A DNA stretch of 10,257 bases from a virus (lineage: Duplodnaviria > Heunggongvirae > Uroviricota > Caudoviricetes). The DNA is taken from positions 1-10,257 of IMG/VR virus record IMGVR_UViG_2547132272_000016, one strand, 5' to 3'. Each line of letters opens with the position of its first letter. The stretch's first letter is position 1. A model generated the notes under the pieces. It had not been told where the DNA came from, did not search any database, and worked only from the letters and a program-made list of their open reading frames with translations. Made by a program: the position numbers and the translations under genes. Of this stretch, positions 1 to 10,257 are shown piece by piece.

Positions 1-77
1 TAACTGCACGCCTCCCGTTCGCTCTTGACGGCGGCGGGCTTCAGATAGAAACTTATCCGTCTGGTTGGTGTCGTCAT
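1..77 (-). CDS. ParR-like centromere-binding protein, N-terminal fragment (gene runs off the window start)
   Basis: ATG at 77-75 on the - strand, 4 nt after the ParM stop, with an AAGGAG Shine-Dalgarno overlapping that stop. The 25 visible residues (MTTPTRRISFYLKPAAVKSEREACS) resemble the recalled N-terminus of plasmid R1 ParR (..KRRTIAFKLNP..). Gene order parC-parM-parR matches R1. Confidence 0.4.
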   Translation of the reverse strand, partial: MTTPTRRISFYLKPAAVKSEREACS

Positions 78-81
78 TGGT

Positions 82-1041
82 TTACTCCTTGTCCATTGCG
101 TACAGCCCATTAACCAGAGCAAACTGTGGCACCCCGTCCGCGATGAAAGTTGCATTAACTCCGCAGGCTTCGCGGATAGCGGGTGCCACAATCTCCGCTC
201 CTCCACCGACAACCATCACCCGCCCGTAACCCGAAAAACCCGCCAGCGCGCGGATCACGCGTTGTTTCAGTGTTTCTTCCTTTTCACGAATAACTGCCAT
301 CAGGCTGGCGTAATGCGCGTCATTGTGGATGTGCTGGCGCAGCCAGGCTTCATCATGGCGATGTTCGATAATGGTATTGGCGATGTGGTGACTGGTGCGC
401 ATACCGTTAGTGGCCATCACCGACAGTACGGCATCGGCCATCAGAGAAACGCCTACGTGTGGATCGCAAAACACCTGGCTGATACCTGCCAGTTGCCCCT
501 GAACCTTTGCCACATCCAGCGTGGTTCCGCCCAAATCCACAATCAGCAGGGATTCAAACGGACTCATGTCAGCCAGTGCCTTAAAGCCAGCCGGAATGGA
601 TTCAGGCATAACCCGCACGTTACGGATAGTGAATGCCTCGCCGTTCTGGTACTCCACCGGGCGCATAACGTTCGCTTTTTTGCGGCTGATGTTGGCCATG
701 TCCGGCTGTGCGTTTGTATCGAAATACTCGCTCAGTGGCAGGGTGACAACCACATCCACTTCCTGTGGCGTGATGCCTGATTTGACCAGCGCGTGATGAA
801 TGGCAATGACATTCACATCGCTGTACTGGTATTGCGTGTCGGTCGTCTGGATAAAGCGATCGCTGACCGGATCAAAACCATAGCGCACGCCATCAAGCAT
901 GTAGTTCGCGGGCTGCGTGCCACCGAACGGCGCAGACCATTCCGACTTGAAGCTGTTCGGGCTGATGGCGTTGCGGCGTTCGCCGTTCTCAGTCCATGCC
1001 AGCTTGATGTTGGTGGAGCCGTCGTCGATACAAATTTTCAT
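82..1041 (-). CDS. parM: Actin-like plasmid segregation ATPase ParM/StbA
   Basis: 319-aa ORF with ATG start and AAGGA Shine-Dalgarno 8 nt upstream. N-terminus MKICIDDGSTNIKLAW plus the blocks ISPNSFKSEW, YQYSDVNVIAIHHAL, VMPESIPAGF and DLGGTTLD match recalled R1 ParM/StbA motifs (actin-fold phosphate-1 DDGSTN and DxGGGT-type motifs). Confidence 0.88.
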   Translation of the reverse strand: MKICIDDGSTNIKLAWTENGERRNAISPNSFKSEWSAPFGGTQPANYMLDGVRYGFDPVSDRFIQTTDTQYQYSDVNVIAIHHALVKSGITPQEVDVVVTLPLSEYFDTNAQPDMANISRKKANVMRPVEYQNGEAFTIRNVRVMPESIPAGFKALADMSPFESLLIVDLGGTTLDVAKVQGQLAGISQVFCDPHVGVSLMADAVLSVMATNGMRTSHHIANTIIEHRHDEAWLRQHIHNDAHYASLMAVIREKEETLKQRVIRALAGFSGYGRVMVVGGGAEIVAPAIREACGVNATFIADGVPQFALVNGLYAMDKE

Positions 1042-1072
1042 GTCGCTTTTCCTTATGTTGATTAATTAACCG

Positions 1073-1184
1073 TTTACGGGATTTTTAAATCCCGCTTTCG
1101 CCTGTTTTGTGCGCACTTCATGTTTTATGGCGCGTTTTTTGCTCATTTACGGGATTTGTGAATCCCGTTTCTGTCTGTTTTTTG
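1073..1184. repeat. Two ~39-bp direct repeats 73 bp apart, each with an 18-bp palindrome (CGGGATTT-nn-AAATCCCG); candidate parC-like centromere/operator or replication-origin element
   Basis: Repeat 1 (1073-1111, palindrome 1077-1094) lies in the 76-bp gap between the A stop and the parM start, overlapping the likely parM promoter. Repeat 2 (1146-1184, palindrome 1150-1167) lies inside the last codons of gene A. About 80% identity between the copies. Confidence 0.45.
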
Positions 1185-3925
1185 TTTCCACTGGTCAGGC
1201 CACCCCGCAGCAGGTCTGCTTTGCGGTGGGCGCGTTCAGTGGTTTCACTGATTCTTTGTGCATGCTCTGCGTCACGGATGGCGCGCAGCATGTCAGAAAG
1301 CACGGTAACGGGTGTTTTCATGGTGTTCTGGTCTTGCTGAAGTGTGGATGCCAGGCGTGCGGCGGCTTCGGGGTCTGATGCCCCCAGCTGTTCCAGATAG
1401 CTGGCGACCGGGTTATGACGGATCTCCGTGCTGCTTACGCCGTGATTGCGGCTCAGGCGCTGCCAGAGCTGCGTGATTCGGCTGTCCGGGCGGGTATCCG
1501 GTTTGCGTACAATTTCAAATCCCTGCGGTGCAATGATGCTGCCGTCAACGTACAGGCTGCCGCCCCGTAACAGGTGCTGCATCTGCTGTTCACCGATATG
1601 CAGGCCGAGAGATTCGGCAGACTCCCGCCATTCTTTAGCGAGTAATTCGTGGTTATCAGGCAAAGGCCGCTGCTGTTTGCGGCTCTGTGTCCAGCTCTGC
1701 ATTTCATCACTGCTGTTTTTTGCCTGTTTGTCACGCAGCGAACGCATCAGCGCCCGGCGTTCGTGCCGTTTCAGTGAGCGCATCCATTCGTTCACTTCAA
1801 CGCCGTCAGGGAGCTGCGGCCACGGTGCTGGCCGTTCTTCCGGCTGTTCTGTCCCGTTGTTGTCCGTTTCCTGTACACGGGGACAGTTATTGCCACGAGT
1901 CCAAGGGGCGGCAGGGCCGCCCTGAAGGTCAAAACCATTTTCGCGGGCGCTGTCTTCCGCTTCCGGTTTGCGTCTTACCAGCTTCCAGTTATCCGGATGC
2001 GTGCATACGCGGGAAGACTCCCCAATGAGCGGCGACCAGATCCCGTAAATCTGTACGCTCTGTTCACCGTAATCGTTCAGCTCATCTGCGAGGTCGTAGG
2101 CGGTGCGAATCAGGTAGTCCTTGCGTGGAACAAGCACGCCACCCTGTTTTTCAATGTAGGTGGCAAAACACCCGGCATCGGCGGCAGCGAGTACCGCATC
2201 CATTGCATCATCTTTCAGCCGTTGCGGGCCTTCCGGATTGCGTGCCATCTGGCTGGCAAGGCGGCGCAGTTCACGCCACACCTGACGGGAGGGGATACCA
2301 AAGAACTGGAACTGACGGACCCGGTGAAGGCGCGCCCAGCCGATGGCGCGCTCCACGCTCTCGGCCATTGATTTTCCGGTTTCGTGGTCAACGCGTGGCT
2401 TGCCCGTTTTCGGGTCGATGCCATCCACGGCGCGGCTGTCCAGGTTCTTTCCGATGTAGGTAGCGATGTAGCTGGTTGGTGTGCCTTTTGAGCCGTCGAC
2501 ATACTCCGCCTTAAAGCGCGGAGTAATATCATTGCCCAGCTCGTGGCGGTCCTCCTGAATGGCAATATCGCAGACGTGGGACACGATGGTTTCAATCTCG
2601 TCCGGATGTGCAAAGACCATCATATGCCAGTGCACGGTGCCGTCATGGTGAGGCTCCACCGTGCGGATGCCATACCAGCGCAGGCCGTCGCGGTTCAGTT
2701 TTTTGCGGACCGCCGCAAAAAACGTGTTAACCAGGTAATCGCTGGAGTCGCGCATGGTGGCCCCGTTCCATTTGGGGTTCGGATGACCGTTCTCCGTTGT
2801 TGCGTGGTATTTTGACGGGCAGGTGACGGTCAGAAACACCGCTCTGTCGCCACGGGCTTCGGCCAGAAGTTCCAGTCCCTTCATGGTGGCCATCATTTCT
2901 GCCTTACGGTGAACCGGGTTACTTACTCCCGCGTAATACACCGTCTCGAGATCAATCGTGAACCCGTCTTCATTTTCCAGCATGAAACTTTTCAGGAAAT
3001 CGCGTGTTTTCTCGCGCTGTGCGCGAAACTCGCTTAACGCATCCTGGCTCAGATAGGGTGATGTTTTTCTGGAAACCAGACAGGCGGCGCGGAGTTGTTC
3101 TTCTCTCCACTCGCAACGTAACAGCCACAGTTTGCGTTTCCACCAGTCCGCACAGGTCAGGCGGAGGATTGCGCCCGGTAACAGTTCCGTATTCGGATCG
3201 CTCTTGTTCAGGGCTTCGTAATGTGGCGGCATGATGTGCAGGCATAATGCGATACGGGCTAGCATCCGGTAAGCCTTCAACATTACATCCATGGTCAGCT
3301 CGCCATCTCTGGCACCAAAGCCATCGCAGAGTGTTTCAAAGGTGCTGCTGAACATCGCCGCCGTCATGGTGGCCAGCGTCTGTATCTGGTGCTTGTTGAG
3401 CTGCGGCAGGTAAAGCAAATCGTCCAGGCGTTCTCGCCCGGCAAGGGAGCGATAACCCGGTGTCAGCCAGCGTCCGTCAGTGCGATCCAGACGTTCGAAT
3501 ATTTTGCGCAGGGTTCCGCGTGCATAGCGTTCCGCCTGCCAGCTCTTTTTGCCTTTCTGGCGATCGGCTTCCTGTTTTTTGCGCAGGAAGGAGAGGTGGC
3601 GAATAAGCGGATCGCGCAGATAGGATGGCAGCAGGCGCAGCGAGGCCATGGCTTCATCCACCGCGCCGCGTGCCTGTTTTCTGGCTTCTCTGGCCAGTGT
3701 GATGGTTTTGTCCTGTTTTTCCTGTGCGTCCAGGCTTTTATTAATCAGGTTGCCCAGCGGTGTGGCGGAGAACGCCGCATCAGCCATTTCCTGGCGGCGT
3801 TCGTTCTCTGCCCGGTAGGCATCCAGCCAGGAGGAAAGTGCGGATTCAGGTGCGGGGATCTCCGTTCCTTCACGTCCTACTGCGTGGCGCGGTTGTTGCC
3901 AGTCCCTGATGTACTCTGTCGTCAT
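1118..3925 (-). CDS. A: P2 gpA-family rolling-circle replication initiator (HUH endonuclease)
   Basis: 935-aa ORF with an HUH motif (VHWHMMVF) followed by a paired-tyrosine YxxxY motif (TSYIATYIGK), the arrangement recalled for P2 gpA and phiX174 gpA. Sits as the last large gene of the early operon, as in P2. An R/E/Q-rich C-terminal ~300 aa makes it longer than P2 gpA (761 aa). Confidence 0.85.
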   Translation of the reverse strand: MTTEYIRDWQQPRHAVGREGTEIPAPESALSSWLDAYRAENERRQEMADAAFSATPLGNLINKSLDAQEKQDKTITLAREARKQARGAVDEAMASLRLLPSYLRDPLIRHLSFLRKKQEADRQKGKKSWQAERYARGTLRKIFERLDRTDGRWLTPGYRSLAGRERLDDLLYLPQLNKHQIQTLATMTAAMFSSTFETLCDGFGARDGELTMDVMLKAYRMLARIALCLHIMPPHYEALNKSDPNTELLPGAILRLTCADWWKRKLWLLRCEWREEQLRAACLVSRKTSPYLSQDALSEFRAQREKTRDFLKSFMLENEDGFTIDLETVYYAGVSNPVHRKAEMMATMKGLELLAEARGDRAVFLTVTCPSKYHATTENGHPNPKWNGATMRDSSDYLVNTFFAAVRKKLNRDGLRWYGIRTVEPHHDGTVHWHMMVFAHPDEIETIVSHVCDIAIQEDRHELGNDITPRFKAEYVDGSKGTPTSYIATYIGKNLDSRAVDGIDPKTGKPRVDHETGKSMAESVERAIGWARLHRVRQFQFFGIPSRQVWRELRRLASQMARNPEGPQRLKDDAMDAVLAAADAGCFATYIEKQGGVLVPRKDYLIRTAYDLADELNDYGEQSVQIYGIWSPLIGESSRVCTHPDNWKLVRRKPEAEDSARENGFDLQGGPAAPWTRGNNCPRVQETDNNGTEQPEERPAPWPQLPDGVEVNEWMRSLKRHERRALMRSLRDKQAKNSSDEMQSWTQSRKQQRPLPDNHELLAKEWRESAESLGLHIGEQQMQHLLRGGSLYVDGSIIAPQGFEIVRKPDTRPDSRITQLWQRLSRNHGVSSTEIRHNPVASYLEQLGASDPEAAARLASTLQQDQNTMKTPVTVLSDMLRAIRDAEHAQRISETTERAHRKADLLRGGLTSGNKKQTETGFTNPVNEQKTRHKT

Positions 3926-3931
3926 ACTGAT

Positions 3932-4297
3932 TTACTTCGTCATGCCATTCAGAGTGTCACGGCAAACGGCAGCCAGCCGCTGAATCTCCAGCACAGTGTC
4001 TTCTGTGTCGGCATGGTGGTGTGTGATGCGGATACTGTCGGCAATCACATCGACGATCGCAGAGGATGGGCGCTGGTAAATGCCAATAACGGACGGGGTG
4101 CCGCCTTCAATGCGGTAAAGCCTGTAATTTCCCTCGTGGCTGTCAATCATGTAGCGACCATCAATAACAATCTTTCCGTCAGCGAGCTGCGGTACAGGCA
4201 GGGATTTCAGGTACATGTCATAACGGTCACGCACGCGAACGGCAAGATCACGCTCTGTGTTGAGCAGGTATTCAAGAAAGTCGTTGGCGAGAATCAT
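3932..4297 (-). CDS. Hypothetical early-operon protein (121 aa)
   Basis: C-terminal 121 codons of the 326-aa track ORF. Internal ATG at 4297 has an AAGAGGA Shine-Dalgarno 8 nt upstream and protein-like composition from there on; the stop lies 6 nt before the gene A start. The upstream 205 codons are S/T/P-rich and look non-coding. Confidence 0.55.
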   Translation of the reverse strand: MILANDFLEYLLNTERDLAVRVRDRYDMYLKSLPVPQLADGKIVIDGRYMIDSHEGNYRLYRIEGGTPSVIGIYQRPSSAIVDVIADSIRITHHHADTEDTVLEIQRLAAVCRDTLNGMTK

Positions 4298-4370
4298 TGC
4301 GGCAATCCTCTTTACTACAGATGTGCGAAGGCCTCCCGCCGCAAGGTGCAGGAAAGGCCCGGAACAGGAA

Positions 4371-4601
4371 TTAATGGAGTTTGTTTTGCTGCTGGATGAG
4401 ATCCTGAAGAGACAGGAGGTCTTCCGCCAGATAGCTGAATACAGCGGCGCAGTAGTCGGCTGAAATAGTGCTGTTGAGTCTGTGCAATGTGTTGGATTGC
4501 ATGATAAAGGCGATGTGTGCAGCGCGGGTGAGTCTGCGGTCGATTTCAGTCTGGATGTGACGACGCTCTGCGATAGCGCGGTGCTGTTTGCGGTTTGCCA
4601 T
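4371..4601 (-). CDS. Hypothetical small basic protein (76 aa)
   Basis: ATG with AAGAGG Shine-Dalgarno 8 nt upstream; charged N-terminus (MANRKQHRAIAERRH..). No family recognised. Confidence 0.55.
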   Translation of the reverse strand: MANRKQHRAIAERRHIQTEIDRRLTRAAHIAFIMQSNTLHRLNSTISADYCAAVFSYLAEDLLSLQDLIQQQNKLH

Positions 4602-4692
4602 GGTGTGGCCTCTTTGGTTGTAAGTTTTGAAAACTCACCATCCAGAGGTGGAAAACTCGGGGTGGTGAGACGTACAGGGTTTCCACAACCGG

Positions 4693-4716
4693 CAACCAAA
4701 GAACCCGGCCCGACCG
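4693..4716 (-). other. Stable hairpin with a UUCG tetraloop on the transcribed (-) strand, in a 322-bp non-coding gap
   Basis: Minus-strand RNA GGGGCCGAC-UUCG-GUCGGGCCGGG followed by UUCUUUGGUUG. Could be an attenuator, processing site or terminator. Confidence 0.3.
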
Positions 4717-4778
4717 AAGTCGGCCCCATACGCCCCACCATAATTCGTGTGCGAAAAAGACGTGGCGATACGGTACGC

Positions 4779-4801
4779 ACAAAAAAACCGCTGGCGCGGT
4801 T
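4779..4801 (-). terminator. Candidate rho-independent terminator or attenuator on the - strand
   Basis: Minus strand reads ACCGC-GCCA-GCGGT followed by TTTTTTTGTG, about 125 nt downstream of the 99-aa gene stop. The stem is short (4-5 bp), so this is weak. Confidence 0.3.
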
Positions 4802-4923
4802 GTGCGCTTTGGTTGTCAGCGGGGTGGAAATCCCGGCACCCGTTTTATGAGGTGCAGCGGAAATGTAACCTGACTGATTGCGGCATGGCAAGCGGTTTTT
4901 TTGTGTGTGCATGTTCTGGTTTC

Positions 4924-5223
4924 TTACTGGTTCAGAAAAAAATCAAAAACCTTGTCAATGCGTTGCAGCAGCTCTTGCTGTATTGCTTCCGGCGTTTCCG
5001 GTTCGCCTGGCACCTCCAATGTCGCGCAGAAATCAGCGATTTCATGATGGAGCGTCAGGCGAATGGCAGGAGCCGTGGTTCTGGCGTGCTCCAGCTCATC
5101 CAGCAATGCCAGCACAGCAGACGGCGAGAGCATTGCGCGAAATGCCAGTAATTTTTGAGGTGTTGCCATTCGTTGCAGGGCAAATGCCAGTTCGCGTAGC
5201 TTCTGGTGGTTGATGGTGCTCAT
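4924..5223 (-). CDS. Hypothetical protein (99 aa)
   Basis: ATG with GAAGGAAG Shine-Dalgarno; its start overlaps the upstream gene's stop in an ATGA. No family recognised. Confidence 0.6.
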   Translation of the reverse strand: MSTINHQKLRELAFALQRMATPQKLLAFRAMLSPSAVLALLDELEHARTTAPAIRLTLHHEIADFCATLEVPGEPETPEAIQQELLQRIDKVFDFFLNQ

Positions 5224-5486
5224 GTTCTGGCTTCCTTCAGTAGCTGGTTAAACATGTGAGTAAGTGGATTGCTACACCCGAACGGCATCGGGTTTACGTG
5301 GTAAGAAGCCTGGCCTCCAGTTTTGCGAGCGCGACCACCTGTGCTGCGGTTTGTTCTGATGACTAAGCCGCCGCGCCAAAGTTGGCGTAACTCAGCATTA
5401 ATGGCTGTGGTTGGAGTATTCAGTGCTGCGGCGATCTCTCCGCCGCTACACCCCGGATGAGTAGCGATGTAGTCCAGAATGGTCAT
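5220..5486 (-). CDS. Hypothetical small protein, possibly winged-helix DNA-binding (88 aa)
   Basis: ATG with AGGAG Shine-Dalgarno; ATGA overlap with the upstream gene. N-terminal MTILDYIATHPGCSGGEIAAALNTP...LRQLWRGGLVIR has the look of a winged HTH; this is inference only. Confidence 0.55.
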   Translation of the reverse strand: MTILDYIATHPGCSGGEIAAALNTPTTAINAELRQLWRGGLVIRTNRSTGGRARKTGGQASYHVNPMPFGCSNPLTHMFNQLLKEART

Positions 5487-5686
5487 CTGCGTGGCTCCTG
5501 TACTTGTCGGATAAGATTCACCCGCGCCACGTTGGTGGCGCAGAAATAAGTGCCGTCAGTGAGGTAGATGTGGTGCGCATCCTTTTCCGAACGATGTTTG
5601 TCGATAGTGGTAATCAGGCGTTCGTCGACCTCGTATTCACGTCTTCTGGAGGTGAAACGAACGACGGTAAATTGCTTAATTGCCAT
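5483..5686 (-). CDS. Hypothetical small protein (67 aa)
   Basis: ATG with GGGAG-type Shine-Dalgarno; overlaps the upstream gene's stop by 11 nt. Confidence 0.55.
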   Translation of the reverse strand: MAIKQFTVVRFTSRRREYEVDERLITTIDKHRSEKDAHHIYLTDGTYFCATNVARVNLIRQVQEPRR

Positions 5687-6002
5687 TACACTCCCTTGCT
5701 TTATGTCCGTGTTTGAGCTTTTCTATTTCTTCTTTTTGTTCTTTTAATATTCTTATGGCTGTAAAAACATTAAAGCCCATAAAATGTGCTCTGTTCGCTA
5801 GTGGAATGCTGGTACCTTTGTTAGCTATATCATCTTCAATATCAGTGAAATACTGACGTATTTCTTCTAGCGCGGCGCAGAGTTTTGTGAGATCTCGCCC
5901 TACATCATAATACGCAGTCCTTAGTATTTCTTGATTTGTCCTGAGCATGCTAACCTCATGTTTATATATGCGGATACCTCCGCGAGTGCGGATTGTTTTC
6001 AT
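5676..6002 (-). CDS. Hypothetical protein in an AT-rich segment (108 aa)
   Basis: ORF in a visibly lower-GC stretch (about 5700-6060) than the flanking genes; weak Shine-Dalgarno. Looks like an acquired insert within the operon. Confidence 0.45.
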   Translation of the reverse strand: MKTIRTRGGIRIYKHEVSMLRTNQEILRTAYYDVGRDLTKLCAALEEIRQYFTDIEDDIANKGTSIPLANRAHFMGFNVFTAIRILKEQKEEIEKLKHGHKARECNGN

Positions 6003-6037
6003 GTTTTCTTATTTAATCTGGTGTTTTGTTTGTGCAG

Positions 6038-6151
6038 TTATTCGTCAGAGAAAAAACGCTCAATCTTTTTCACTGAATGAATAATTCGCATAATGCCAAT
6101 GGTGCAGACCACCGAAATAATCAGAATAAGCCATGACATAAATATACTCAT
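6038..6151 (-). CDS. 37-aa hydrophobic single-pass membrane peptide, not in the supplied ORF track
   Basis: Minus-strand ATG at 6151 with GGGGAA Shine-Dalgarno 7 nt upstream, overlapping the upstream gene's stop in an ATGA. Translation: MSIFMSWLILIISVVCTIGIMRIIHSVKKIERFFSDE, a ~20-residue hydrophobic core then a basic tail. The track's 6060-6263 ORF is in a different frame. Confidence 0.45.
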   Translation of the reverse strand: MSIFMSWLILIISVVCTIGIMRIIHSVKKIERFFSDE

Positions 6152-6390
6152 GCGATATTCCCCAGTTTATATGGTTCAATGCGAACCCCGTATTCTGTGT
6201 CCCGGACAAGTTCGGAAAGCTCGTTAATCGCATCCAAATCGTCAGCGTAAAAGGCCACGTCATAAAGGCTTCTGATTGCCCTTGCTAATGAATCATAGGC
6301 CGCGTGTTCTGCCTGGACTCCTGATGTGTTTAAGCGAAAATGAAAACGCTCAAGTGCTTTATTGACGAGAGTCTTGTATTCCTGGTCCAT
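6148..6390 (-). CDS. Hypothetical acidic small protein (80 aa)
   Basis: ATG with AAGGG Shine-Dalgarno; tightly spaced with neighbouring genes. Confidence 0.55.
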   Translation of the reverse strand: MDQEYKTLVNKALERFHFRLNTSGVQAEHAAYDSLARAIRSLYDVAFYADDLDAINELSELVRDTEYGVRIEPYKLGNIA

Positions 6391-6401
6391 TGCAACGCCC
6401 T

Positions 6402-6680
6402 TTAATCTGCCTTATGGGTTTCAGCTTCTGAATCCATACAAATAATTTCGATATAGGGTTCATCGCCATTAACCTGACGTGCCTTTTCAGCTTCGCTAAT
6501 GATTTCTCGTACGGTCTGATACGGAAGCTCCACAGTCAGGCGCGTACCGTTCAGATAAACGTAAGTAGCTGCGTTTTTTTCGGATGGAACAACTCCGTCA
6601 ATGGCTGATGCGCGTAATAACAGTTCACCGCGAAAATCAATAAAACGGATAAATACACTTTGTGCATGGTCTTTGGTCAT
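6402..6680 (-). CDS. Hypothetical protein (92 aa)
   Basis: ATG with AGGTGA Shine-Dalgarno; 10-nt gap to the upstream gene. Confidence 0.55.
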   Translation of the reverse strand: MTKDHAQSVFIRFIDFRGELLLRASAIDGVVPSEKNAATYVYLNGTRLTVELPYQTVREIISEAEKARQVNGDEPYIEIICMDSEAETHKAD

Positions 6681-6690
6681 AAATCACCTG

Positions 6691-7041
6691 TTATAAATCA
6701 GCTTGTTTAATGAAATTCTGTCCGCGCAGCAGACGATCAACCGTGCGCAGAGCTTCGTACAACGTGAAATCCTGTCCAAACTGATTGTCGCCGTTGCTCA
6801 GAGCAAAAATGCGGTTTCCGGTAAATGGGTTGCGTTGGCATCTGTGAACCACGATTCCAGCTTTCTCAATTAGCCAGGTGTGTTCACCAATTTGTTTTAC
6901 GGGATGGCCATCAGGTGTGGCGTGTGTTTCGCTCAGGCTGTAGCGAGAGCTGCTGCGTGATGCACTGGTGGCGAAACGGTTAGCGTGGCGTTCCGCCCCG
7001 TTGCGGAAGCGTTGCTGTGAAGAATTTCGTTGTTGCTTCAT
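6691..7041 (-). CDS. Hypothetical protein (116 aa; start uncertain, alternative ATG at 7089)
   Basis: ATG at 7041 is preceded by AGGA; the ORF's first ATG at 7089 has no Shine-Dalgarno. Basic S/R-rich N-terminus then a globular-looking C-terminus. Confidence 0.5.
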   Translation of the reverse strand: MKQQRNSSQQRFRNGAERHANRFATSASRSSSRYSLSETHATPDGHPVKQIGEHTWLIEKAGIVVHRCQRNPFTGNRIFALSNGDNQFGQDFTLYEALRTVDRLLRGQNFIKQADL

Positions 7042-7085
7042 ACAAAAATATCCTGCTGCTGTTGCGAATTTGTGCCGGGTTTTAG

Positions 7086-7117
7086 CCATGCCCGGCGCAT
7101 GGTTTTGTGGTATTTTT
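7086..7117 (+). terminator. Candidate + strand hairpin with U-tract (terminator or attenuator) upstream of the + strand accessory gene
   Basis: CCATGC-CCGGC-GCATGG stem-loop (7086-7102) followed by TTTTGTGGTATTTTT. An overlapping alternative stem GCCGGG-N11-CCCGGC (7074-7096) could compete with it. Confidence 0.25.
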
Positions 7118-7182
7118 CCACCGCCCGCAGTCTTGAAGGGGCTGTAAAGGGCGCGTGTTTAACCAACCACAAAGGAGTTGTT

Positions 7183-7650
7183 ATGGAATTAGATGCTTTT
7201 GTGTGTCTGCGAATTTTTGAAAAACACTGCGAGCGAGTTGCTGAATCCTATCGTGATGTGCTGGATAAAGAAACAGCCAACTCAGCATTTGTTGCTACTC
7301 GAGCATTAATTCTCCTTAAATTGGATTTGCTACTTGTCGAGTATCGAAGAAATATTGATTCCAAGTGTGTAGTCCTCTTCGGAAAAAATGTGCTTTATCA
7401 TTATCTTTTCACCCAAAAGGGTGTTTCATTGTCTGATGCCAAAAATATGTGTCTCCATGACATACTTATTGTTCTCTGGAATGATATTAATGCATATGTA
7501 ATACCAGAGCATGTATCCGAGCGTATCCAGATTCTTTATAAGCACGAGCTCTCATCTCCAATGCCTGATTTAAGTTATGAAGATGAAAGTCTGTTGCACT
7601 TTAAGGATTCTGCTTGGGATTTTTATCCTGCCGATACACGACTGAATTAA
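7183..7650 (+). CDS. Accessory protein of unknown function (155 aa), opposite strand to the early operon, low GC
   Basis: ATG at 7183 with AAGGAG Shine-Dalgarno 6 nt upstream (the track ORF extends upstream only via a TTG). AT-rich codon usage unlike the flanking phage genes. Its 3' end overlaps the convergent 202-aa gene by about 47 nt. Confidence 0.6.
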   Translation: MELDAFVCLRIFEKHCERVAESYRDVLDKETANSAFVATRALILLKLDLLLVEYRRNIDSKCVVLFGKNVLYHYLFTQKGVSLSDAKNMCLHDILIVLWNDINAYVIPEHVSERIQILYKHELSSPMPDLSYEDESLLHFKDSAWDFYPADTRLN

Positions 7651-8209
7651 GAAACTCATTGTTTCTATCTATTTCAGCCTGGTAGGCCTCTAACTCATGC
7701 CGTAATTGTTGTTGTCTTAGTGGTAACCTGTTGCGGCATTTCAATTCTGCTACAACGGTTTCCAAAAAATTTATCAGTTCTTCATCAGTGTATGAGCCAG
7801 CATAAATGTACGGTTTAGTGTTAGCGCATGTACAGTCTGCTGTTTCTTTAATGAGCATTGATTCGTCATCCATAATCTGTCGATAAAGTTCAAATGCTTC
7901 TTCGGCAGGAAACCTGAGCATGACGCCGCATACTGGTTCTAAAACCAATCCGAACGTTCCCTTTGCGTTATCCCGACAAAAATGGCCGTATTCATCGTCG
8001 GGATGCAGGGTGGCATCTTTCAAATCTTCGCCATTCTGAAGCTTTGATTTAAATGCCATCAGGTCAGCGAACGTTCTGTGTAATTCGTGGTAGTCAATGC
8101 TGATTTCAACCTGTGGTTTGCCCGGAAAAACCAGCAAAAGCTTCTGGTGTGGTTTTTCGTTTTTCAGGGTTTCCAGTCGTTCCAGTAGCGCTTTATTTTT
8201 GTGATTCAT
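7601..8209 (-). CDS. Hypothetical protein (202 aa), second gene of the leftward early transcript, low GC
   Basis: ATG with AAGAGG Shine-Dalgarno about 10 nt upstream. No family recognised. Its 3' end overlaps the + strand 155-aa gene. Confidence 0.6.
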   Translation of the reverse strand: MNHKNKALLERLETLKNEKPHQKLLLVFPGKPQVEISIDYHELHRTFADLMAFKSKLQNGEDLKDATLHPDDEYGHFCRDNAKGTFGLVLEPVCGVMLRFPAEEAFELYRQIMDDESMLIKETADCTCANTKPYIYAGSYTDEELINFLETVVAELKCRNRLPLRQQQLRHELEAYQAEIDRNNEFLNSVVYRQDKNPKQNP

Positions 8210-8313
8210 TCTACTGTTACCTCTTTTAACTCATTCAGGCAGTGTGATATAGCCCACTAACTGCCCGTGTTTGAAATAACGGCGACGAAAATAATGTGTT
8301 AACAATAAAGCAA

Positions 8314-8739
8314 TCATGCGGCCCTCGCTTTTTTAGTTCTGCTTCGTTTGCTATGTGTCGGCTTAAATAAAAACAGGCGGTTTTCCCAGTCATGCCATTC
8401 CTGCGGAGCGTTTTCGATCAAGCGATCACATGCTTCATCCCACGCTTTTCTGTTGATGTAGAGTTCAGCGTTTCCTCCTGGCCTAAGAGGGTCTGTCATA
8501 TACACGGCTGGCAATTTCCCTGCTTTAGCCATGCTCACAATGGCGCTAACTGTTTTGCCGATATACAGCGCAAATCCTTCTTTTGACAGGAGATGCGAGG
8601 GATTTTCTGAAAGTCGAATTTCTTCACGTTCACGTGCTTTGCGTTCTGTTTTTTGATGCTCCCCTTCTGGCATTTCTGACAGGCGATCGCATCGTGTTCC
8701 GCAAAGTGACTCAGGCGCGTTTTGAGTGCTTTCTTGCAT
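8314..8739 (-). CDS. cox: Cox/Apl-like HTH regulator (excisionase/early-operon repressor type), unusually long
   Basis: First gene leftward of the switch region, the position of P2 cox and 186 apl. Central HTH-like segment GFALYIGKTVSAIVSMAKAGKLPAVYMTDP resembles what I recall of P2 Cox. Start placed at ATG 8739 (GGAGG Shine-Dalgarno 7 nt upstream) rather than the track's GTG at 8778. At 141 aa versus ~90 for P2 Cox it has a charged N-terminal extension; it could alternatively be a CII-type regulator. Confidence 0.55.
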   Translation of the reverse strand: MQESTQNAPESLCGTRCDRLSEMPEGEHQKTERKAREREEIRLSENPSHLLSKEGFALYIGKTVSAIVSMAKAGKLPAVYMTDPLRPGGNAELYINRKAWDEACDRLIENAPQEWHDWENRLFLFKPTHSKRSRTKKARAA

Positions 8740-8812
8740 CTGATATCCTCCGCCATTGGTGCTCTTTCTAATTGGCACTAGTTGGAACCACTTAGAACAT
8801 TTGTTTGCTGTT

Positions 8813-8840
8813 CATATGTGGTGTTAATCTACACATATGT
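8813..8840. promoter_or_regulatory. Candidate repressor operator: CATATGTG-N11-CACATATG (also two direct CATATGT copies 20 bp apart)
   Basis: The two half-sites flank the proposed -10 of the leftward early promoter, analogous to P2 C operators flanking the Pe -10 and 186 CI operators at pR. Confidence 0.4.
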
Positions 8841-8853
8841 AGGAGTTTGTCAA
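8826..8853 (-). promoter_or_regulatory. Candidate early lytic promoter (Pe-like), transcribing leftward toward cox
   Basis: Perfect -35 TTGACA on the - strand (8853-8848), 16-nt spacer, -10 TAGATT (8831-8826). The -35 abuts the C start codon, so the early transcript would be antisense to the C 5' end. Confidence 0.4.
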
Positions 8854-9147
8854 ATGGACATTCCTCAAAAAATTCGCGTCATGCGCAAATCTGAAGATCT
8901 CACTCAGCGGGAATTCGCTGATATGATTGGAATTTCTTATTCTGCTCTGACCAGTTATGAGTATGGTCGTAACCTTCCTGGCCTCGAGATCACTATCAAG
9001 CTTTTCAAGCACCCGAGATTTTCTAAATACCGCGACTGGTTTCTGTTTGATGAAGTTGAACCCAAGGCCGGGCAGGTTGTACCGGCTCTCGCACACATTG
9101 GGCAAGGCGAAGCGGAATCATCCCGCTCCGGCAAGAAAACTGGTTAA
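8854..9147 (+). CDS. C: P2 C-type immunity repressor
   Basis: Start at internal ATG 8854 with AGGAG Shine-Dalgarno 8 nt upstream. The 97-aa product matches recalled P2 C features: KIRVMRKSEDLTQREFADMIGISYSALTSYEYGR and the C-terminal PALAHIGQ...SGKKTG. Lies immediately upstream of int on the same strand, as in P2. Confidence 0.85.
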   Translation: MDIPQKIRVMRKSEDLTQREFADMIGISYSALTSYEYGRNLPGLEITIKLFKHPRFSKYRDWFLFDEVEPKAGQVVPALAHIGQGEAESSRSGKKTG

Positions 9148-9213
9148 CGGTTCACCAGGCATTTATTTCCCAGAGCTGTGATCAAGATGATGTTTTCATT
9201 GGAGGGCTTCCTT

Positions 9214-10209
9214 ATGTCGATTAAGAAGCTCGCTAATGGCAAATTTTGTGTGGACGTGCGGCCTGCTGGATCAGAAGGAAAGAGATTCAGGCGGCGATTT
9301 GATACTCGTGGTGAGGCTGTTTTGTATGAGCGTCATGTATTGCAGCATTACCACGACAAAGACTGGGTTGATAAGCCAACAGAACGGCGCTCGCTGAGGG
9401 AGTTGCTGGATTGTTGGTGGCTATACCATGGGAAAAACCATCCTTACGGTGCGATGGAGCGAGTGCGTATTTCTGCGGTCATTAGTGATCTTGAAAGTAT
9501 TAATGTTACACGCAGTGACCAACTTACTCGTAAGAACATAATTAATTATCGGTTATTGTTGCTTAACCGCGGAATAAAACAATCCACGGTTAATCGTTAT
9601 TGCGCAATGATGAGTGGTTTCTTCACAAAACTAATTGACGCAGAGGAATATTCTGGGGTTAATCCGTTTCATGATGTGAAAAAACTTAATATCAAACAGC
9701 CTGAAATGGCTTATTTGTATCATGAAGATATTCCACGATTACTGGAGTTGTTATCTGGTGATGAATTAAAAGCCGTCTTGTTGTGTCTGGCAACAGGTGG
9801 AAGATGGAGTGAAGTTGCAAATATCAAGGGGGAGCATGTTATTAGCGGCAAAGTCATTTTTATGGAAACAAAAAATGGGAAGCGTCGCGTTATACCTATA
9901 TCGTCAGAACTGGAGTGCATGATTAAGACTAAGGCTACTGGTCGTTTAATTTATCCGAGTTATGCCGCTGTCAGAACGGCTATCAGAAAAGTGAGGCCCG
10001 ATCTTCCTGAAGGGCAGTCGATACATGTTTTACGGCATACCTTTGCCACTCACTTCATGATTAATGGCGGGAATATCATCACTTTGCAGAGAATACTTGG
10101 GCATAGCACTATTCAGCAGACGATGACTTATGCCCATTTTGCACCGGATTATCTGCAGGATGCTGTGCGCTTTAATCCTGTGGCTGAGTTGTCCAGATAT
10201 TGCCCATAA
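9214..10209 (+). CDS. int: P2-type tyrosine integrase
   Basis: Start at ATG 9214 (MSIKKLANGKF..., compare P2 Int MAIKKL...) with GGAGGG Shine-Dalgarno 7 nt upstream; the track's GTG at 9178 is probably an over-extension. C-terminal catalytic region HVLRHTFATHFMINGGNIITLQRILGHSTIQQTMTYAHFAP carries the conserved R, H-x-x-R and catalytic Y of tyrosine recombinases. Confidence 0.92.
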   Translation: MSIKKLANGKFCVDVRPAGSEGKRFRRRFDTRGEAVLYERHVLQHYHDKDWVDKPTERRSLRELLDCWWLYHGKNHPYGAMERVRISAVISDLESINVTRSDQLTRKNIINYRLLLLNRGIKQSTVNRYCAMMSGFFTKLIDAEEYSGVNPFHDVKKLNIKQPEMAYLYHEDIPRLLELLSGDELKAVLLCLATGGRWSEVANIKGEHVISGKVIFMETKNGKRRVIPISSELECMIKTKATGRLIYPSYAAVRTAIRKVRPDLPEGQSIHVLRHTFATHFMINGGNIITLQRILGHSTIQQTMTYAHFAPDYLQDAVRFNPVAELSRYCP

Positions 10210-10257
10210 AATAGGACTAAATAAGCCTTGAACCGCCCCGGGAATCCTGGAGACTAA

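Follow-up and report, generated by a model that had tools for sequence, protein, structure and literature searches.

The classical role of R1-type ParMRC systems is the stable inheritance of low-copy plasmids, and the C-terminal tail of R1 ParR is the peptide that binds ParM. Phages of the P2 type replicate by a rolling circle mechanism that gives monomeric circles, which are the packaging substrate in established P2 biology. Both subjects bear on the DNA considered here, a stretch of 10,257 nucleotides (positions 1 to 10,257 of IMG/VR virus record IMGVR_UViG_2547132272_000016, the whole of which is called the window below) from a P2-family prophage. Its region 1-1184 comprises the 5' stub of a parR gene, a complete parM gene, an intergenic region and the final 67 nt of the phage replication gene gpA.

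In prophage CGP3 of Corynebacterium glutamicum, the proteins AlpC and AlpA are induced early, bind phage DNA and are necessary if the phage is to replicate efficiently (PMC4446434). Rousset et al. 2022 (PMC9122126) surveyed the stretch between gpA and gpQ in P2-like prophages of E. coli and reported a putative partition system in roughly one quarter of P2-like phages, by which these may persist as plasmids; ORF35 of phage phiSM is tabulated solely as a "fitness" factor (PMC6456863). Database annotation also exists, since PHROGs classes both ParM and ParR as partition proteins and RefSeq names them "plasmid segregation protein ParM" and "plasmid partitioning/stability family protein". Because the survey and these annotations precede the present work, neither the finding nor its main interpretation is new, and the novelty implied by the initial annotation of the window, made from its letters alone, does not hold: the pair and the speculation about a plasmid state were both in print. 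What is added here is the fixation of the cassette in one phage lineage, the purifying selection on it, its position across genera, a pair of dyads ahead of parM and the rarity of episomes. The matter is of some consequence: the cassette is present in roughly one complete E. coli genome in four, and an integrating phage keeps a plasmid-segregation motor under strong purifying selection.

Identity of the cassette and of its host element

Genes in the window were called from a six-frame listing of open reading frames (ORFs) together with Pfam scans, by which the window is a P2-type early region. The parM gene (82-1041, minus strand) encodes a 319-residue protein predicted from Pfam and Protein Data Bank (PDB) matches to be an R1-type actin-like ATPase. 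Residues 1-157 match Pfam StbA_N (E 5.8e-82) and residues 159-316 the ParM C-terminal domain (1.1e-68), as the initial annotation's call of ParM had it, and over its whole length the protein can be aligned with R1 ParM of known structure (1mwk, E 1.2e-92), 146 of 315 aligned residues (46%) being identical. The motifs DDGSTNIK, MPESIPAG, DLGGTTLD and GGGAE are the same in both proteins. The NCBIfam ParM equivalog NF010498 (PRK13917) scores 19.2 bits, below its curated cut-off of 417 bits, and the NCBIfam ParM and ParR models gave no usable matches; that model does not cover the window ParM, and the assignment to the R1 type derives from the Pfam and PDB matches.

Only the 5' end of parR lies in the window (1-77, minus strand), with its ATG at 77-75 and 25 codons (MTTPTRRISFYLKPAAVKSEREACS, 77-3) up to the window edge. 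The ATG starts 4 nt past the parM stop codon and is preceded at 7 nt by AAGGAG, which overlaps that stop and thus suggests translational coupling of parM and parR. The stub scores 23.1 bits against the ParR family PF10784 (E 6.5e-5, over 20 of 72 profile positions), slightly below the cut-off of 25 bits. The full-length gene is found in a 98.5%-identical relative, the E. coli locus L002; its 104-residue ParR (L002:19763-20077) scores 85 bits (E 3e-24), which bears out the earlier reading of the stub as ParR-like, and matches the pB171 ParR structure 2jd3 weakly (E 0.004). Among 42 ParR protein variants the N-terminal RRISFYLKP is invariant. A C-terminal tail N-I-x-x-x-F-P is constant in P88-type ParRs, and its more general form N-x-x-x-x-F-P is near-invariant in phage and plasmid ParRs. 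Elsewhere ParR varies, its linker included, its alleles grouping into two or more divergent families, and a mosaic boundary lies inside parR after about codon 17, while ParM is 98-100% identical throughout. Judged by these matches and motifs, the ParM-ParR pair is almost certainly a bona fide type II DNA-segregation cassette. An apparent natural ParM-ParR fusion (P0005) was rejected as a frameshift artefact without the ParR tail.

The element itself is a P88-like (Xuanwuvirus) prophage of the P2 family. Fourteen phage records of genus Xuanwuvirus, P88, P884B11, 520873, 503458 and Citrobacter phiSM among them, match the 1184-bp region at 95-98% identity, and the relatives run on into portal, terminase and P2 capsid genes. 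The window holds the P2-family set: a tyrosine integrase (9178-10209, plus strand; Int_N 5.9e-18, Phage_integrase 1.3e-17), a helix-turn-helix repressor (8782-9147, plus strand) and Cox (8314-8778, minus strand), the latter two by Pfam, and a replication endonuclease gpA of the long P88 type (1118-3925, minus strand; 935 residues, PF05840 1.3e-127) with an internal homologue of the P2 origin nick site. This gpA has 30% identity to P2 A. It lies on the same strand as parM with 76 bp between them, and a series of small ORFs occupies the minus strand besides Cox, gpA and parM. The placement first proposed, directly after gpA, co-oriented with it and within an integrase-bearing P2-like prophage, is accordingly confirmed. 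Of 5426 complete E. coli genomes 1303 contain the region, which has 1441 places on chromosomes as against 2 on plasmids. Since the L002 relative adjoins selD in the E. coli chromosome and a 97%-identical copy of the window integrase adjoins chpSB-ppa, the element is a prophage rather than a plasmid, as had been supposed. A contig labelled Vagococcus sp. (Firmicutes; L096, NZ_JBQPOM010000071.1) also encodes a ParM that shares 97% identity with the protein of the E. coli phages, most likely through assembly contamination or mislabelling.

A lineage-fixed part of the replication module

In P88-like phages ParMR is a lineage-fixed part of the replication module and not accessory cargo. In a set of 50,697 phage records, ParM of the R1 type is confined to 14 P88-like records and phage D6; a P88-type gpA (84-96.5% identity) is present in exactly those 14 P88-like records, and none of the 282 other gpA phages (gpA at most 43% identical) has a ParM. 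The E. coli genomes give a similar count, with P88-type gpA in 1321 and parM in about 1279. ParM is intact in 80 of 80 IMG/VR relatives at 98-100% amino acid identity, and parM is under strong purifying selection, its ratio of nonsynonymous to synonymous substitution rates (dN/dS) being 0.053.

The initial annotation had placed the pair in the locus that in P2 carries accessory genes, a hotspot for anti-phage cargo, and the P2 interval from A to Q does hold tin and old. A role as accessory or lysogenic-conversion cargo of this hotspot, for example in interference with incoming plasmids or phages or in defence, would suit that position, the allelic diversity of parR and the variable genes that relatives carry in the same interval. 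The stretch from parR to the portal gene, which lies outside the window, ranges from 1.0 to 4.2 kb in loci L003-L082 and contains candidate ORFs (of 50 residues or more, many probably spurious) in about 100 clusters, the IetAS defence system being present there in 3 of 62 loci. The cargo reading is nevertheless very improbable. Within the P88-type gpA lineage the module is fixed rather than variable, in 14 of 14 phages as against 0 of 282 others, so that the hotspot placement fails for this pair. At the DNA level conservation of parM (95-99% identity in 1286 of 1304 records) exceeds that of gpA (90-95% in 844 of 1444). PADLOC gives no match for ParM or ParR, and the two proteins are too far from plasmid forms (at most 53% identity, other upstream sites) for obvious cross-talk. 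The synteny with P2 holds as far as the interval is concerned and not in orientation, because parMR is co-oriented with gpA and tin and old are antisense with their own promoter. Since parM is fixed, parR allelically diverse and the downstream interval variable, the hotspot begins at or after parR. In locus L074, as an example of the IetAS loci, IetA matches at 3.6e-89 and IetS at 5.6e-41; the same interval downstream of parR holds HicAB in Serratia and a KAP NTPase in Enterobacter.

The linkage of ParM to a phage replication gene is ancient. ParMs of plasmids in PLSDB are at most 53% identical to the window ParM, with none between 53% and 95%, and a search of 5.8 billion proteins brought up intermediates at 54-63% identity; those looked up sit in P2-like prophages of Plesiomonas, Hafnia, Serratia and Enterobacter, which have in common the gene order gpA, zero to two ORFs, parM, parR, cargo, in some cases ogr, and portal. 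In neighbour-joining analysis the E. coli, Plesiomonas and Hafnia ParMs form one clade and those of Serratia and Enterobacter another, each with 100% bootstrap support, and the union of the two phage clades receives 51%. Chromosomal ParMs at 49-50% identity (Dickeya, Mangrovibacter) belong to an integrative and conjugative element and an integrated plasmid, not to phages. Recent capture from a plasmid was considered and rejected, given the empty range in PLSDB and the separate clades of the phage ParMs. A simple boundary by which 54% identity or more denotes a phage had to be softened, because the ParM of an Apirhabdus plasmid reaches 61%; that gene is frameshifted, lies on an ordinary Rep3/ParA plasmid and attains 61% on its best segment only.

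Two dyads ahead of parM and the proposed role of the cassette

A 39-nt unit occurs twice ahead of parM, at 1073-1111 and 1146-1184, where 0.26 matches would be expected by chance, and each unit contains the palindrome CGGGATT-N4-AATCCCG. The proximal dyad, CGGGATTT-AAAA-ATCCCG (1077-1094, no strand assigned), has the form GGG-N10-CCC and starts 52 nt upstream of the parM ATG; the distal dyad, CGGGATTC-ACA-AATCCCG (1150-1167, likewise without strand), lies inside the last 20 codons of gpA. The gpA stop codon falls between the two, which are 73 bp apart, and no further copy of the palindrome is found elsewhere in the P88 genome. Plesiomonas and Hafnia also have a pair of GGG-N10-CCC sites 72-73 bp apart, although the flanks no longer align, and in all three lineages the sites start 52-59 and 125-131 nt upstream of the parM ATG. 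A pair with this spacing is unique in each of the three loci (35.8, 15.4 and 17.0 kb), and at most 4 of 2000 shuffles yielded one. Because the Hafnia gene upstream of the pair is not gpA, the dyads travel with parM rather than with gpA. The dyad sequence shows no co-variation with ParR allele type, the same site variants occurring with all ParR alleles. From position, spacing and conservation we infer that the two dyads are candidate ParR sites, that is, a putative parC or operator.

Alternatively, the palindromes might have nothing to do with a centromere and be RNA hairpins for processing or attenuation, or sites for some other protein, with parC elsewhere or absent. Each E. coli dyad can indeed form an 8-bp stem with a 4-nt loop, one of the two lies within coding sequence, and there are two copies only, unlike the known parC arrays. 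However, stem changes among 80 relatives are uncompensated, neither site is followed by a run of T on the coding strand, and in Plesiomonas and Hafnia the stable hairpin is lost, for only GGG and CCC with their fixed 10-nt gap survive, yet position and 72-73-bp spacing are kept. The uncompensated stems and the loss of hairpin potential fit a protein-binding DNA site better than an RNA structure, and the absence of another copy from the P88 genome is a further point against this alternative; a non-centromere role is on balance distinctly unlikely.

The P2 origin was rejected as an explanation of the dyads, because the homologue of its nick site lies about 0.7 kb upstream, inside gpA. This homologue (1883-1912, minus strand; GCCGCCCCTTGGACTCGTGGCAATAACTGT in the window, GCCGCGCCTCGGAGTCCTGTCAATAACTGT in P2) is 0.7-0.8 kb from the dyads, and its P2 counterpart surrounds the annotated P2 nick at 29892. 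An octamer, TTAATCAA, within 1042-1072 (minus strand) and 13-20 nt ahead of the parM start codon, is kept in E. coli, Plesiomonas and Hafnia (L086 and L087 having the equivalent), its surrounding sequence not; it may serve as a weak -10-like element or be bound by some protein.

Consensus scans of the gap between gpA and parM found no sigma-70 promoter and no coding-strand terminator. In the scheme proposed, transcription of the early operon would run on past gpA into parM and parR, its last genes, whose products would therefore be made at a time when the phage genome replicates outside the chromosome, following infection or induction. The N-terminal ribbon-helix-helix strand of ParR would bind both GGG-N10-CCC dyads, which would act as a minimal centromere and possibly as an operator too, and the conserved C-terminal tail N-I-x-x-x-F-P would capture the ends of ParM filaments. 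Polymerization of ParM driven by ATP might then push apart or position the monomeric phage circles made by rolling circle replication from gpA. Replication or packaging would gain in efficiency, or each daughter cell would inherit circles during an episomal phase, a role of the kind shown for AlpAC in CGP3, and long-term plasmid maintenance would be an occasional by-product at most. That ParMR positions extrachromosomal phage circles in the replicative phase is judged to have close to an even chance of being right. The stronger proposal is made somewhat more tentatively, namely that ParMR may be a "mini-spindle" adapted to the virus, its minimal centromere made of two dyads, which has evolved together with the long gpA module across the Enterobacterales and is needed for efficient replication, packaging or inheritance of circles in the lytic or pre-integration phase.

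Several points weigh against this scheme. The GGG-N10-CCC motif was defined after two lineages had been seen, and Hafnia is for that reason its only independent check. The Serratia and Enterobacter clade has a different element, an inverted repeat of 14-19 nt, and only two candidate sites stand against the AT-rich, many-iteron leaders of 250-300 bp in plasmid and D6 ParMR; no iteron-array parC is present upstream of parM in the window. The P88-type ParR (103-104 residues) is without about 25 residues that are kept in the plasmid, Plesiomonas and Hafnia ParRs, and its higher-order assembly may consequently differ. A weak internal promoter may have escaped the consensus scan, a partition motor is not obviously needed by a multicopy lytic replicon, and no functional study of a P88-type ParMR was found in the literature, where searches yielded just the phiSM table entry and one sentence in PMC9122126.

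The alternative put forward in PMC9122126, and in the "dual lifestyle" first suggested for the window, is a facultative plasmid prophage in which ParMRC lets P88-like phages persist as low-copy episomes besides integrating. It draws on the classical function of R1-type systems and on the fact that D6, the sole other phage to have a ParM of this kind, is a P1-like plasmid prophage. It also has one complete assembly in its favor, since PLSDB record pZ1323PEC0009-2 (L083, NZ_CP148288.1) is a whole P88-like genome as a circle of 34,461 bp, a finding that likewise counts against a purely replicative role. The record was deposited as a "plasmid" of an E. coli isolate from a cat, a strain outside the collection of 5426 genomes. 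It is, however, the only phage-sized circle in 72,556 PLSDB records, the other five close matches being replicons of 228 kb to 1.4 Mb. A query across its attP junction matches 442 E. coli genomes and is split in every one of them, and an intact attP junction for its integrase type occurs in 0 of the 5426 complete E. coli genomes, so that one circle is set against more than 1,400 chromosomal copies. The integrase is retained. For replication, gpA, a rolling-circle nickase, is the one gene seen, with no theta-type plasmid replicon among the genes that are annotated or were scanned with Pfam, and the search for promoters gave none outside the control of the repressed early operon. These phages are clearly integrated as a rule, an episomal copy being a great rarity; spontaneous induction, with excision and replication of the phage DNA, may account for the single circle. 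A dual lifestyle is thus poorly borne out, and regular persistence as a plasmid seems unlikely, if a little less so than a non-centromere role for the dyads.

If the positioning of phage circles by ParMR is correct and the cassette organizes replicating phage DNA, cytoskeleton-assisted virus replication, as in AlpAC and PhuZ, would extend to a tractable E. coli system, and an unusually small centromere would be defined. If the mini-spindle form is correct, a Gram-negative and genetically tractable counterpart of AlpAC would be present in about a quarter of E. coli strains. Should there be an episomal state after all, prophage surveys that assume integration would undercount the lifestyle of a very common phage family. 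The "plasmid segregation" label can meanwhile lead plasmid-detection pipelines to call chromosomal prophage contigs plasmid-derived.

Neighbouring features and relation to known systems

Two other parts of the window deserve mention. Rfam matches place a C4 antisense RNA at 4658-4745 (minus strand, 80.5 bits) and an isrK RNA at 4781-4855 (minus strand, 64.3 bits) just upstream of an ORF for a 76-residue "derepression protein" (4371-4601, minus strand), a layout that resembles the immI-type RNA-controlled antirepressor arrangement of P1 and P7. An ORF of 326 codons at 3932-4912, with a Pfam "Ash" match, overlies both RNAs, and its N-terminal part is for this reason probably no gene. Between cox and the DUF4761 gene, at about 7000-8337, lies a low-GC insert (0.38-0.42 as against about 0.55 elsewhere) that carries an ECs1072-family ORF (7030-7650, plus strand; NF033230, 3.9e-32) and an unassigned 202-residue ORF (7601-8209, minus strand). 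The insert has zero DNA matches in the 5426 complete E. coli genomes and looks like a second variable cargo slot.

Compared with ParMRC of R1 and IncFII-type plasmids (StbA, StbB and parC), the window cassette is alike in ParM length and domain order, in its 46% identity and nucleotide-binding motifs, in a ParR of PF10784 with the N-x-x-x-x-F-P tail that the ParR of an IncFII plasmid also has, and in the order parM then parR with repeated sites upstream. It differs in lying in an integrating P2-family phage behind the gene for a rolling-circle initiator, in having a 76-bp gap with two dyads where the plasmids have an AT-rich iteron array of 250-300 bp and a promoter, in a ParR about 25 residues shorter, and in ParMs that form clades separate from the plasmid versions, which are at most 53% identical. 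Phage D6, whose StbA and StbB include the only other phage-borne R1-type ParM (47.8% identity) and whose GenBank note itself cites "phage P88 StbA", lives as a plasmid, has a long iteron-bearing leader and places its ParM among plasmid ParMs in the tree, unlike the P88-like phages.

The P2 gpA-gpQ hotspot with orf91, tin and old occupies the same interval, from gene A to the portal gene. P2 tin and old are antisense to A with a promoter of their own, while the window parMR is co-oriented with A, as is orf91, and unlike the variable P2 hotspot it is the constant, A-proximal and co-oriented part of the interval in the P88-like lineage. AlpC of CGP3 differs from the window ParM in being a distant actin-like protein not of the R1 type, in another host and another type of phage, and the function of AlpAC has been shown experimentally whereas we infer that of the P88-type ParMR. 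AlpC, AlpA and alpS nonetheless offer a close parallel to the window locus: in both an integrated prophage encodes an actin-like filament protein and a DNA-binding adaptor, the adaptor site (a candidate one in the window) lies upstream of the operon, and the proposed task is the handling of replicating circular phage DNA (PMC4446434).

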